Shown: positions 50,664-55,483 of the stretch, piece after piece | Layout: each line of letters begins with the position of its first letter | How positions within the stretch are numbered: position 1 is the stretch's first letter | Assembly (NCBI RefSeq): GCF_041248615.1 | Contig: NZ_CP158426.1 | Source: Escherichia coli | Lineage (GTDB): Bacteria > Pseudomonadota > Gammaproteobacteria > Enterobacterales > Enterobacteriaceae | DNA length: 64,000 bases | Reading direction: 5' to 3' (one strand) | Translations under genes and position numbers: made by a program | Notes under the pieces: model-generated | The model's input: the letters and a program-made list of their open reading frames with translations, nothing else | Told to the model about the DNA's origin: nothing | The model's database searches: none

Positions 50664-50765
50664 ACCGGTATCCTGTTGATTTCACTGAACCGGATCACAC
50701 TAATCCGGTTTATCATTCAGGTAATATGGGCGTGAAAAAATCTGGAGTGACAAAGTTCGGGAGGA

Positions 50766-51719
50766 GTGATGGCATCACTGTCGATTAATACGCTACGCCG
50801 AATGAGCATTTGTAAAAGTCAGGCCTGGAAAGATACCCAGCGAATACTGAAGCGTAGTGGACTTGTGTACAGAGGGGAACGGTCAGAATCGTTTGATCCT
50901 GAGAAACATTTTAATCGTTATACGGTGCGTTATCTGTACCTGCTTAACATAATTGCGCTTAAGATAAGGTCGGTTAGTAAATTTTCCTGTTGGATCGAGG
51001 TGGGACAATGCCATCGTATGACTGGTAAACATTTATCTCTTAATGCCCCGCCTTTTATGCTGATTCCGCGTAGTATCCGGAGAAAAGTGGATGGATTCAG
51101 ACAGTCAAAAGGTGAAGCAACCCCAAAATCGGCTCAACCGTTCACGGGCAGTTTGTATGAGGTTTTGAGAAAGGAGAGCGATTCAGCTAAGCTGGACGCA
51201 TGGATTGCTGAACTGCCTCTGAACTTGCAGGAGGAGGGAAAGGAAATCTCAGTCATGGGATTTAGTCCACGGGCTGTGGCCCGACCTGTTCTTCGGTCAG
51301 CATCCCCGACGTTTGAACTGTTTTATCAGGAGTATCAATCCCTAAGATTAAAATCTGTTTTTAAATTTGAACCAAGATTTGAACAACTTTTAACAAGACT
51401 GAGCTTTAGAAAACAATCAATTCTCAGAAAACAACAATACAGGGTTAAATCGCAATTACTGGAGAGACTGGGGAATGTGTTGTTTTTCACGTCGCTTTAT
51501 AACCAGGGATGTTTAGAGGAGTTTATAAATGCACTTGTGGAAAAGGAGGACATTTATCTGAAAATGTCCCCTGGGGAGGAAAAGGTGAAAGCACACCAGA
51601 AAATGGTTAACTACATTGAAGCGTTCTGCAACAAAATGACGGAAAAATACCTGATGCCCGCAGCAAGCAGACACTACAAAAAGAAGAAAATCGCCAGGAG
51701 CGAAAGTGGTGAAAGTTAA
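50766..51719 (+). CDS. Hypothetical protein (317 aa), unrecognised
   Basis: Long ORF with strong Shine-Dalgarno (GGGAGGAG) upstream of GTG/ATG start; divergent from the GTPase gene; no recognised motifs. Confidence 0.5.
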   Translation: MMASLSINTLRRMSICKSQAWKDTQRILKRSGLVYRGERSESFDPEKHFNRYTVRYLYLLNIIALKIRSVSKFSCWIEVGQCHRMTGKHLSLNAPPFMLIPRSIRRKVDGFRQSKGEATPKSAQPFTGSLYEVLRKESDSAKLDAWIAELPLNLQEEGKEISVMGFSPRAVARPVLRSASPTFELFYQEYQSLRLKSVFKFEPRFEQLLTRLSFRKQSILRKQQYRVKSQLLERLGNVLFFTSLYNQGCLEEFINALVEKEDIYLKMSPGEEKVKAHQKMVNYIEAFCNKMTEKYLMPAASRHYKKKKIARSESGES

Positions 51720-52434
51720 TCCAGTCTACCGTACAGAATCAGTTGTTCCAGAATAGCCTGCTGTGTTGTTTTCCGCTCTCTGGTCAGTCTGTCCAGAGCG
51801 CTTTTTGCGGATGGCGATATCTTTACGTTGATTTGTACCCGTTTATCTTTTTTTCCATCGATAAACTGTTTTCTGAATGCATTGTGCATCTTGTCGAAAA
51901 ATCTTTCTTTTGCAGCGAATCCTAGGTGAAATTCTTTTGGCGTCAGTAAACAGGGTGTGTCTGTGGGGAATAACATTTTTAGTAAAACTACAATGGCAAT
52001 ATATCTTTCGTTATCATTTACAGGATTAAACCAGGAAAGATATGTGGGTGAGATACGTGCATCAATATATTCCCATGCCCATTTCAGTTGTTCGGTATTC
52101 TTTTTAAGCCATTTGGCTTCGTTTCTCTTTTCGAGTCCCAGCCAGTTTTGATGCATTATTGAGATAATCCGATCTGCTTCCCCATAAAGGATTAACGCAT
52201 TAATCCATTTCCCTATAACATTCAGTCGTGTTTCATGACTTGAAGGAATAATTGTCATGGGGTTATCCTTCATAACGATCACCCCCTTCAAGGCAGAGTT
52301 GAACTCAGATTCATTATTAAGTTTAAGTTTTTCGGGAACTGTATAGACTGGCCCCATGAATCTCCAGACAACCAATATCACTTAAATAAGTGATAGTCTT
52401 AATACTAGTTTTTAGACTAGTCATTGGAGAGCAG

Positions 52435-52800
52435 ATGATTGATGTCTTAGGACCGGAGAAACGCAGACGGCGTACTACACAGGAAAAGATCGCTATTGTT
52501 CAGCAGAGTTTTGAACCGGGAATGAAGGTCTCCCTTGTTGCCCGGCAACACGGTGTGGCAGCCAGCCAGTTATTTCTCTGGCGCAAGCAATACCAGGAGG
52601 GAAGTCTTACTGCTGTGGCCGCAGGAGAGCAGGTCGTTCCTGCCTCTGAACTTGCTGCTGCCATGAAGCAGATTAAAGAACTCCAGCGCCTGCTCGGCAA
52701 AAAAACGATGGAAAATGAACTCCTTAAAGAAGCCGTTGAATACGGGCGTGCAAAAAAGTGGATAGCGCACGCGCCCTTATTGCCCGGGGATGGGGAGTAA
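52435..52800 (+). CDS. insC: IS2 transposase InsC (OrfA)
   Basis: [56 protein letters not shown]... matches IS2 InsC. Confidence 0.9.
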
Positions 52801-53663
52801 GCTTAGTCAGCCGTTGTCTCCGGGTGTCGCGTGCGCAGTTGCACGTAATTCTCAGACGAACCGATGACTGGAAAGATGGTCGCCGCAGCCGTCACTCAGA
52901 TGATACGGATGTGCTTCTCCGTATACACCATGTTATCGGAGAGCTGCCCACGTATGGTTATCGTCGGGTATGGGCGCTGCTTCGCAGACAGGCCGAACTT
53001 GATGGTACGCCTGCGATCAATGCCAAACGTGTTTACCGGATCATGCGCCAGAATGCGCTGTTGCTTGAGCGAAAAACCGCTGTACCGCCATCGAAACGGG
53101 CACATACTGGCAAAGTGGCCGTGAAAGAAAGCAATCAACGATGGTGCTCTGACGGGTTCGAGTTCCGCTGTGATAACGGAGAAAAACTGCGAGTCACGTT
53201 CGCGCTGGACTGCTGTGACCGTGAGGCACTGCACTGGGCAGTCACTACGGGCGGCTTCGACAGTGAAACAGTACAGGACGTCATGCTGGGAGCGGTGGAA
53301 CGCCGCTTCGGCAACGAGCTTCCGGCGTCTCCAGTAGAGTGGCTGACGGATAATGGTTCATGCTACCGGGCTAATGAAACACGGCAGTTTGCCCGGATAT
53401 TGGGGCTTGAACCGAAGAACACGGCGGTGCGGAGTCCGGAGAGTAACGGCATAGCAGAGAGCTTCGTGAAAACGATAAAGCGTGACTACATCAGTATCAT
53501 GCCTAAACCAGACGGGTTAACGGCAGCAAAGAACCTTGCAGAGGCGTTCGAGCATTATAACGAATGGCATCCGCATAGTGCACTGGGTTATCGCTCGCCA
53601 CGGGAATATCTGCGGCAGCAGGCCAGTAATGGGTTAAGTGATAACAGGTGTCTGGAAATATAG
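52758..53663 (+). CDS. insD: IS2 transposase InsD (OrfB, DDE)
   Basis: 301-aa ORF overlapping insC in the -1 frame; matches IS2 InsD. Confidence 0.9.
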
Positions 53664-55483
53664 GGGCAAATCCACTGTATGAGACATAATTAACCAGAAC
53701 CAGAATGCTGCAATTTCATTTTTTCTGATCCATTCAGGTATGTGATTATCTGCCAGATTATTATCATTCAATAAATGCTCAGTTGTTTTATTTTTCCAGT
53801 CATATCTATTCACGTTATAACCGCCTTTATATTGTTTCATCTGATTACGCCTCAATCGTTTTCTTTTCTGGTGATTTTCACCATCACATGTCAGTTGTAT
53901 ATGCAAGGGGATCAATAAAAATATCACCCTGCAAGCACTTCAAAGCTGATTATGGGGATATTCTAGAACTATTCACAAAACTATTCCAGACATATCAAGA
54001 ACTATTTCTTGACCTATTCATAATAAAATAAAACATGCTATCAACTACGGCTCATATTCTCCTTGGGGGTGTCGTTGTACTGTTCGACTGTTCTTGTGGT
54101 CAGATTAACAATCTGAAGAGTAAAAGCGACAGTAATCTGTCTGTTATAGTGGCGATAAAAACACTGAATGCGCATCCTGTATGTGAAATCCTGTCATGTA
54201 GAGCAGTAAGCAATGACAGACATGCATGTTATATGTGAAGGGGGCCGGGAGACGACATAATCAGTATGGCTGTCATTCTGGTTGTAAAACGCGATCACTT
54301 TCCGGGGGTAAAAGATGATATGGAGGTTGACAAACGGTTTGCTTCGGATTGTCTTTTCTGGGGCCTGAAATACGAGGGCAGAAAAATAATTCCAGAGTAA
54401 ATCTGCTCTGTTTTTAGGACAGAAAACTCCATGCTGGCTGTAAAAGTGAAAAATTAACACCCAGTATGTATGGAAGTCTGAAGATGTTGAGAATGTCGGT
54501 ATGATACTATATACACATATTTTACTAAGTATTTTTACTAAGCATTTCAGTAAGTGTTATACACGTATTTTCATAAACACTTCTACAATTGTTTTCGTTA
54601 AGCATTGCTATACACATCCAGTTTAGTAAATCTTTACGTTAACTAAATCAGTTTAATGCTGCTGTAAAACCTTTCTGCTTCAGCAATCAATCTGCTATTC
54701 GATTTTACTGATGTTACGTTTAACCTTTCCTAAGATTTCGAGTTTCGACGTTAGCATGAGAAAAGTATCTTTACGCTAAATCAACCCGAACTTTCCTGAA
54801 GTAATCTGACGTTTTTTTCGATGTGCTTACGACGATTCTGTTAAACGACTTTCTGGATGTTTTGATAACAATCAGATTGAGGCATTAACGATTCCTGACG
54901 TTTTCTTTTCCGTGTAAGGTCATTCTTTTTGTCATGAGGTTTCTTCTTGCATTGCGAAAGTGTGATGAACGGTTTTGGTGTTTTTGATTCAGATAAGGTT
55001 TACGTTATCGATGGTTAATCGTTTTTATGGTGCGTAGTGAAACGTAACTTTTTCAGGATGAGAAAATCGATTCTGATGTTGGTGATTTTTGTTCTTGTGG
55101 CGGGGTTTATCTGTAAACAGGTTTTAAACGTGTCATTCACATCCGTGATTGAGTTGTGTGATTAAGCTGTAGGTTTTGGGGTTGTTGTTGATTTGCATTA
55201 CCAGGAAGCGTTCTGGTTGCGTTTCTGGTGTTTTGTTCGAATGTTCTGTGGATCCTTTTCCCTTCTGACTTTTCTCGTTGTCCATGTCGTTTTTAAATCC
55301 ATTCGCTGTTCTTGAGTGTTTTTACCCTGCGTGTAGAATTATCTTTTCGTTCCGGGATGGTTTGTTCCGTTTCAATCACTCTTAATCAGAGAGTTGTAGC
55401 ATTGCTCAATGCCGGATGCCGTAAAGTTTTACCGCGGTGATTAATGATGTGAAGTCAATCCAAATCAACGGAGATCTCTCATC

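Follow-up and report, generated by a model that had tools for sequence, protein, structure and literature searches.

Ribbon-helix-helix (RHH) repressors of the CopG and CopB kind are plasmid-encoded proteins of 45–86 aa, made up of nothing but the RHH, that share a transcript with rep and act on promoter repeats beside a replication-initiator gene. A second point of reference is the CP4-57 island of Escherichia coli K-12, where the yfjJ–yfjP interval, lying between a Gp2-family gene and a GTPase gene, holds AbpAB, a GmrSD fragment and RnlAB. To our knowledge, little is known about how islands of this family are regulated, silenced or mobilised beyond the part played by AlpA. Here we describe a pair of genes, which we call A and B, that occupies the same interval of an island in a 64,000-nucleotide stretch of E. 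coli contig NZ_CP158426.1 (the window, to which all coordinates refer unless another locus is named). An earlier note, made from the letters of this stretch, had singled the pair out as unassigned cargo next to a YeeP-like GTPase gene and had suggested an assay for phage resistance. We find that the pair is genuine, undescribed and widespread, and that the most fitting view of it is as a hypervariable regulatory cassette belonging to the island backbone and not as cargo, with a role in defence as a minority possibility. The interpretation that we favour, tentatively, is that A and B form an island-specific repressor–operator module, with A as the partner of B, in analogy to the immunity region of a phage.

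A convergent gene pair interrupted by IS2

The two genes converge and their stop codons overlap, with 4 bp in common (51716–51719), exactly as had been noticed beforehand. Gene A, previously given as a 317-aa plus-strand gene with a Shine–Dalgarno sequence, indeed has GGAGGAG at 50760–50766, immediately 5' of its start; the open reading frame (ORF) begins with GTG at 50766, and the RefSeq start, ATG at 50769, gives a protein of 316 aa (WP_000157733.1). This protein is basic, with a pI of 9.9, and is predicted to be all-helical.

Gene B, on the minus strand, is split by an insertion whose ORFs encode 136 and 301 aa and are annotated with a programmed frameshift. Identity to a K-12 IS2 copy is 95.5% over the full 1331 bp without a gap, which makes the element an IS2 isoform. 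When 52344–53679 is deleted in silico, an intact B is restored as a 789-nt ORF of 262 aa, and the reconstructed 2365-bp stretch matches NZ_CP033635.1 letter for letter, so that the earlier proposal of a gene intact until its disruption by IS2 is borne out. Of 5426 complete E. coli genomes, the set used for all genome counts given here, 497 match a near-identical reconstruction, with two bases different, along 80% or more of its length. In genomes with the uninterrupted locus RefSeq annotates B as intact (WP_000816188.1), and CFT073 carries an intact A/B pair in its pheU pap/ireA island, adjoining cadC. The perfect CTGTA duplication and the 100% identical flanks fit the recent transposition that had been suspected.

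In the window, B is cut after codon 53; its full-length product is lost and A is intact. The 3' fragment still covers the Trp-rich helical domain and the C-terminal RHH-like segment (residues ~215–257, at ~51733–51860). An ORF at 51716–52381 has an in-frame GTG within the end of the insertion sequence, which could in principle yield an N-terminally truncated B that keeps the predicted RHH. B has been disabled independently elsewhere with A left intact, by another IS3-family insertion in locus L026 (8921–11066, NZ_CP102675.1) and by a frameshift in L007 (6936–7744). Terminator-like hairpins for B were located inside the 3' end of A (51590–51660, mapped from L001 13055–13104), and the first such hairpin for A lies ~390 nt inside B (52105–52120, mapped from L001 13507–13520). 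From this placement the A and B mRNAs probably overlap in antisense across the RHH-coding part, an overlap that could cause mutual interference.

That A and B are true coding genes follows from the retention of homologues down to 21–32% identity in Citrobacter, Serratia and Hafnia, together with ratios of nonsynonymous to synonymous change (dN/dS) of 0.38–0.55 (0.38–0.54 for A and 0.40–0.55 for B). Both ORFs stay open despite saturated synonymous sites between genera, and by these measures both genes are under purifying selection. A word index of Escherichia gave 68 matches to A, and an exhaustive profile search returned 48 proteins, 17 of which are full-length relatives at 21–30% identity; the members of the A cluster carry the names Citrobacter, Hafnia and Serratia, plus one metagenome-assembled genome labelled Acinetobacter sp. 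Members of the family are basic throughout (pI 9.1–9.9) and, in the alignment, share the invariant residues W20, Q24, K106, L129, Y130, E188 and F240, with no invariant His or Cys. Fewer relatives of B are detectable by search, yet each distant A faces a convergent B homologue. These homologues, 243–320 aa long, share invariant Trp, Arg and Glu positions and the C-terminal segment, and have a large Trp-rich N-terminal domain to which no fold was assigned.

Neither protein could be placed in a described family, in agreement with the earlier note. Protein A has no match in Pfam, NCBIfam, PADLOC or PHROGs, a Pfam scan of every A-family member returned nothing, and full-length A profiles, whether shallow or deep, match no PDB sequence. 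For B, the same four databases and the PDB sequences gave no match besides a weak C-terminal RHH signal. Walker or P-loop motifs are present in 0 of 21 A-family and 0 of 12 B-family proteins, and we found no paper on either protein. Each development that the note had named as fatal to its proposal, namely a match to a family of unrelated function, a failure of the two genes to co-occur elsewhere, or a 317-aa ORF devoid of homologs, turned out otherwise.

An allelic cassette in a conserved island backbone

The A/B pair is a hypervariable allelic cassette in a conserved island backbone. With L001 as the reference, the GTPase, DUF932 and YagK proteins of other E. coli islands are 87–97% identical, as against 22–82% for A and 26–71% for B. 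Sliding-window identity breaks off sharply around A, B and ~360–540 bp 5' of B, and the cassette has a GC content of 38–45% compared with 50–58% in its flanks. The variability implied by the term cargo slot is therefore real, but the content is not arbitrary: an A-family gene stands at the same position in 13 of 13 lineages examined, very distant ones included, and it is the allele that varies. With such a gene at every position examined, the A family seems to be a permanent part of this lineage of islands.

The arrangement around the cassette is equally constant. A GTPase operon runs leftward (its further genes being DUF905, DUF932, antirestriction, RadC/JAB, DUF987 and CbeA/CbtA), followed after ~100 bp by A rightward, B leftward, a gap, and the AlpA/YagK–YfjJ genes rightward. 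This layout is kept in five E. coli alleles, two Citrobacter loci, a Serratia locus and metagenomic contigs, at protein identities down to 21–32%. In the window, a 190-aa gene and then AlpA (57213–57449) lie to the right of YagK/YfjJ. The A-family gene is divergent from the GTPase operon in 11 of the 13 lineages. L020 is without an adjacent GTPase, and in L025 (1–7341) TraG-type conjugation genes replace the GTPase operon on the left, with AlpA/YagK still on the right, an arrangement which indicates a closer bond of the pair with the AlpA/YagK side than with the GTPase.

A B-type gene accompanies A in 11 of the 13 lineages, drawn from several genera, and the two are convergent in every one of these 11 contexts, which answers the earlier question of co-occurrence. 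The 4-bp overlap is not constant, with spacers of up to 121 bp in other loci. Two alleles, L027 (8070–9200, NZ_CP114792.1) and L028 (7986–9209, NZ_CP086623.1), have no B in the same backbone and at the same position. Their single gene encodes 376 or 407 aa, belongs to the A family by hhalign (97.8% and 95.3% probability), and has an additional N-terminal Cys-rich segment of the pattern CxxxxC...CxxH; these Cys-rich proteins have no Pfam or NCBIfam match. The distribution is complementary in all 13 lineages, with the 11 A proteins that lack the extension having B and the 2 that possess it being without B, a pattern that speaks for joint action of A and B on DNA.

Alleles of both types are common. 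B-partnered A genes are found in 742 genomes (820 places) and B, as detectable by blastn, in 560 genomes (616 places; intact in at least 499 genomes), while the B-less A genes of the L027 type are found in 463 genomes (516 places) and those of the L028 type in 975 (1067 places). Relatives of the GTPase occur in 4305 genomes, 1867 of them with a match over at least 80% of the gene, at 8310 places in all, with a median of 2 and up to 9 such places per genome. The islands are thus among the commonest accessory elements of E. coli, and they carry known virulence loci such as the pap/ireA island at pheU in CFT073. The A/B family is absent from 50,697 phage records and nearly absent from plasmids, where 2 of 72,556 carry it as island fragments and B is found as a full copy on only 2.

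The island of the window (43700–58200) abuts ynjB. The window holds no tRNA gene or integrase, several island genes are pseudogenes (DUF4942 frameshifted, DUF5983 truncated, ProQ/FinO frameshifted), and IS1, IS256 and ISL3 remnants lie further right; on these grounds the island is probably immobile. The loss of B may be neutral here, since the island has already decayed.

Between B and YagK/YfjJ, 53841–55483 is a 1.6-kb stretch that is AT-rich (33–44% GC) and almost free of ORFs. Its right 1.1 kb belongs to the conserved backbone, being 89% identical even in B-less islands, and the stretch includes a homologue of a 57-aa ORF (~55136–55303, minus strand) and a decayed 114-aa ORF (~54690–55034). 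Rfam gave no known RNA in 49000–58500 or in the Citrobacter B–alpA spacer. A leader of ~100 nt is conserved immediately 5' of alpA in Citrobacter, Serratia and further islands (L016 8940–9040, L019 2300–2400, L023 9960–10070, L024 10640–10755, L025 10080–10180). Its pattern, TTTACATTCA...GGTATGAGAACG...CCGT.CCCC.TTCGTTGAC...TCTCCCGAA, is internally complementary and has no Rfam match; the E. coli islands are without that alpA copy at that place.

The predicted RHH segment and the repeats upstream of B

The earlier note had seen an RHH-like fold at the C-terminus of B. In the window protein, residues ~215–257 match RHH_1 (E = 0.14), RepB-RCR_reg (E = 0.32) and RepA/CopB (E = 0.027), all below curated cut-offs. 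Among 12 diverged homologues, the same segment matches RepB-RCR_reg in 4 at E ≤ 0.1 (best 4.6e-5) and RHH_1 in 5; three diverged members match NCBIfam RepA/CopB (PRK13702), at E = 2e-4 and 0.014–0.027, and precomputed matches to PF10723 are present on B homologues from five loci. All of the RHH-type matches converge on one C-terminal strand-helix-helix segment, and the AlphaFold2 model of B has a coil followed by two helices at 231–257, with a predicted local distance difference test score (pLDDT) of ~52–79 as 10-residue block means. We consider an RHH of the CopG/CopB type probable: the profile support is repeated, but it is weak, and the scores fall far under the family cut-offs (21 bits vs 87).

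Upstream of B, four direct repeats of the form RAMCTATTY constitute its proposed operator, and four of the five matches to this motif in the entire window fall inside one 54-bp stretch. In the sister allele L005, four tandem copies recur at an exact 11-bp spacing. The –35 element of a promoter-like site for B, which was found on L001, mapped to the window and is a consensus match only, falls between repeats 1 and 2. Of the 7 loci whose B strand carries the residues Q-N-K, 6 have two or more copies of AACTAT 100–165 bp upstream, with two distant lineages (L016, L025) among them; where the strand residues differ, AACTAT is found in 0 of 6, and different repeats are present (ATCATGTT twice at 11-bp spacing in L002, AAGATTAAAAACAGA twice in L024). 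The repeat motif therefore co-varies with the predicted DNA-reading residues of B. That the repeats track the B allele is indicated by the motif changing with B while YagK barely changes among E. coli alleles. We also considered the 11-bp repeats as the binding locus of a Gp2-like initiator in the style of pMV158; this was not our first choice, as YagK is 87–92% identical while the repeats change.

On the other side of the cassette, the intergenic region between the GTPase gene and A contains a conserved inverted repeat, AACCGGAT (50688–50695) and ATCCGGTT (50703–50710), followed by a ~20-nt box, GGTAATATGGGCGTGAAAA (50720–50738), that is nearly invariant across genera and contains the –10-like hexamer TAATAT. 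The inverted repeat is kept by compensatory changes in Citrobacter and Serratia islands: 90% of cells are paired, 5 of 8 pairs are changed on both sides, and 0 of 500 shuffles scored as high, with the covariation driven by three non-E. coli sequences only. This region could be the promoter/operator of A, a hairpin in the 5' untranslated region of the GTPase operon, or a site resembling an origin of transfer (oriT).

Table 1 Features of the locus, in window coordinates
Feature	Coordinates	Strand	Description
YeeP/YfjP-type GTPase gene	49779..50663	–	RefSeq WP_001696588.1; first gene of the leftward backbone operon
Conserved GTPase–A region, putative control region	50688..50738		inverted repeat AACCGGAT/ATCCGGTT and box GGTAATATGGGCGTGAAAA
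Gene A	50766..51719	+	316/317 aa; intact in the window; identical to WP_000157733.1
Gene B, 3' fragment	51716..52343	–	last base of codon 54 through codon 262 and stop
Target-site duplication, left copy	52339..52343		CTGTA, 5-bp direct repeat
IS2-like insertion sequence (IS3 family)	52344..53674	+ (transposase genes)	1331 bp
Target-site duplication, right copy	53675..53679		CTGTA, 5-bp direct repeat
Gene B, 5' fragment	53680..53840	–	codons 1–53 and two bases of codon 54; RefSeq pseudogene fragment
Promoter-like site for B	53949..53978	–	TTGTGA, 18 nt, CATAAT; found on L001 and mapped to the window
Four direct repeats RAMCTATTY	53966..54019	+	GAACTATTC, AAACTATTC, GAACTATTT, GACCTATTC; proposed operator for B
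YagK/YfjJ (inovirus Gp2-family) gene	55484..56215	+	first backbone gene to the right of the pair

A predicted RHH domain, phased repeats 5' of B and a place between divergent operons point to regulation first. What the sequences show is the anatomy of the genes, the insertion, the conservation of the pair, its hypervariability, the clustered repeats and their co-variation with the RHH; DNA binding by B, its target promoters, its partnership with A and the purpose of the diversity are inferred. In the repressor–operator interpretation, B would be a DNA-binding protein whose C-terminal RHH dimerises and reads the helically phased short repeats ~100–190 bp 5' of its own gene. Bound there, B would repress its own promoter, and it would probably also control rightward transcription to the AlpA and YagK–YfjJ genes, of excision and rolling-circle-initiator-like type. 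The basic and predicted helical protein A would be expressed from a conserved promoter pointing away from the GTPase operon and may work with B, probably on DNA; in the B-less alleles it would bring its own N-terminal Cys-rich extension to the task. It is possible that divergent alleles with matching repeats give each island a private regulator–operator specificity, so that several related islands in one E. coli genome avoid cross-regulation.

Several points weigh against this interpretation. The RHH assignment of B comes from weak sequence matches only, and neither full-length profiles of B, shallow or deep, nor one of its C-terminus only match any PDB sequence. No DNA-binding or other domain is recognisable in the sequence of A, and contact between A and B, or of either protein with DNA, is a prediction. 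The two AlphaFold2 models, built from shallow alignments, have low pLDDT (47.5 and 58.8), and fold searches with them are uninformative. Promoter-like sites are rarer in the region than in shuffled sequence (3 vs 8.9), so that the site for B is not significant by itself. The sample behind the co-variation is small and partly non-independent, L001/L029 and L005/L009 being close pairs, and L019 is an exception to it. Some genomes carry an allele of the same type twice (for the two B-less types, 463 genomes have 516 places and 975 have 1067), and such co-residence weakens a strict argument of one specificity per genome. Finally, strong allelic diversity within a conserved backbone is also a signature of conflict genes, whether for defence or exclusion, and the same slot in the K-12 CP4-57 island contains bona fide defence genes.

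Alternative explanations and relation to known systems

These last two points lead to the alternative that survives best, which we nonetheless consider unlikely: a new defence or exclusion system against phages or mobile elements, with A as sensor/effector, B as DNA-binding regulator or partner, and an arms race behind the diversity. In a wider form, to which we give no greater credence, A and B, possibly with the island GTPase, would make up a new conflict system in which A is a nucleic-acid-targeting sensor/effector, B or the Cys-rich extension serves as its DNA-recognition subunit, and alleles diversify in an arms race with phages, plasmids or sibling islands; a variant that is less likely would see in the pair a new origin-of-transfer machinery for these islands. 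The hypervariability and AT-richness of the cassette within its conserved backbone, the fairly high dN/dS (0.4–0.55), the confinement of the family to islands and the AbpAB, GmrSD and RnlAB genes in the equivalent K-12 interval all speak for conflict. The K-12 parallel, which underlay the idea of cargo in the earlier note, holds as regards the genes found there, but CP4-57 belongs to a remote branch of these islands, its GTPase being only 36% identical. In the island lineage studied here, the slot holds one family in every allele examined and not interchangeable systems, and its visible features are regulatory, in the form of a predicted RHH and phased repeats at a promoter. A search of PADLOC-DB v2 with eight diverse A, B and Zn-A proteins gave no credible match, the sole match, of Cas11 to one B (E = 0.026), being judged noise; A, B, three distant A, two of three distant B and both Zn-A alleles were negative. 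We found no nuclease, NTPase, TIR, protease or other effector-type domain or motif in the pair, and no P-loop. Nothing that we found points specifically to an anti-phage activity, and the anatomy points first to regulation.

Rather improbable, in our view, is a DNA-processing module close to an origin that serves transfer or replication of the excised island, in which B would be an RHH accessory protein like TraY, TrwA, NikA or CopG, A a DNA-processing protein, the inverted repeat and box an oriT or origin, and YagK/YfjJ the nicking enzyme. The leftward operon does contain genes of the type found in plasmid leading regions (antirestriction, RadC, DUF932), and the compensated inverted repeat is followed by a ~20-nt box that hardly changes across genera; this box, however, includes a good –10 hexamer suitably spaced from A, and an ordinary promoter accounts for it. 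Similarly, B resembles regulators of rolling-circle replicons (PF10723) and a Gp2/REP-family gene is always near, but the repeats track the B allele, for which operator specificity is a simpler fit than origin function. The L025 pair adjoins TraG-type conjugation genes; even so, the family is essentially absent from the 72,556 plasmids, and A has no relaxase or HUH motif, in a family without an invariant His.

That the pair is a toxin–antitoxin or addiction module that stabilises the island, with B as RHH antitoxin and A as toxin, is very improbable and largely refuted by the natural knock-outs of B: RHH proteins with autoregulation through repeats are frequent among type II antitoxins, and the presence of CbtA/CbeA shows stabilisation modules to be at home in these islands, but B is knocked out beside an intact A in the window, L026 and L007, A-family genes without B make up two widespread allele classes (463 and 975 genomes), the genes converge in 11 of 11 pair contexts instead of sharing an operon transcript, the predicted RHH sits at the C-terminal end of a protein of 262 aa, and no toxin family match was found in Pfam, NCBIfam or PADLOC.

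If the private repressor–operator set is real, it would explain how sibling islands coexist in one cell and would provide a means to induce or cure them. Such a set would also represent a new architecture for an RHH regulator, with a large Trp-rich N-domain, a C-terminal RHH and an obligatory convergent partner. Should defence or exclusion prove to be the function, the system would be new and very widespread. Under either reading, the natural B::IS2 allele is a ready-made mutant.

Among known systems, Pseudomonas tmRNA islands share only general features with the islands studied here, and SEN1998 of ROD21 was rejected as a relative, being an AlpA-type factor. The proposed binding of an RHH to short direct repeats 5' of its own gene (with 11-bp phasing in L005) recalls ParR/parC. 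The differences are that the ParR RHH is N-terminal, that only four repeats are present here, and that an actin-like or Walker ATPase partner is missing; a partition function for A/B was rejected on the lack of an NTPase motif, and the neighbouring island GTPase is of the MMR_HSR1/dynamin-like kind and not a partition NTPase. With the relaxosome accessory proteins TraY, TrwA and NikA the locus shares a predicted RHH beside a leading-region-type operon and a conserved inverted repeat; it differs in having no adjacent relaxase and no sequence match to them, and any oriT-like role here is putative. The K-12 yfjJ–yfjP interval is the same interval of the island, but its proteins are unrelated, with neither A nor B among them, and its genes are co-directional with yfjP.

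Closest by sequence are CopG/RepB-RCR_reg (PF10723) and the IncFII CopB protein (RepA2, PRK13702), the sole families matched, weakly but repeatedly and always in the same segment, by the C-terminus of B. As with these repressors, an initiator-like gene is at hand, the Gp2/REP-family YagK/YfjJ gene standing on the side that B faces. Unlike them, B is larger, has an N-terminal domain, is specific to chromosomal islands, is transcribed away from YagK/YfjJ and has a convergent partner of ~300 aa. The likeness to temperate phage immunity regions is one of logic only, as there is no kinship of sequence or fold and A and B are convergent where repressor and cro are divergent. In that logic, divergent alleles stand between conserved flanks, the cassette lies between two divergent transcription units, and the repeat motif, as proposed operator, shifts with the residues predicted to read DNA.

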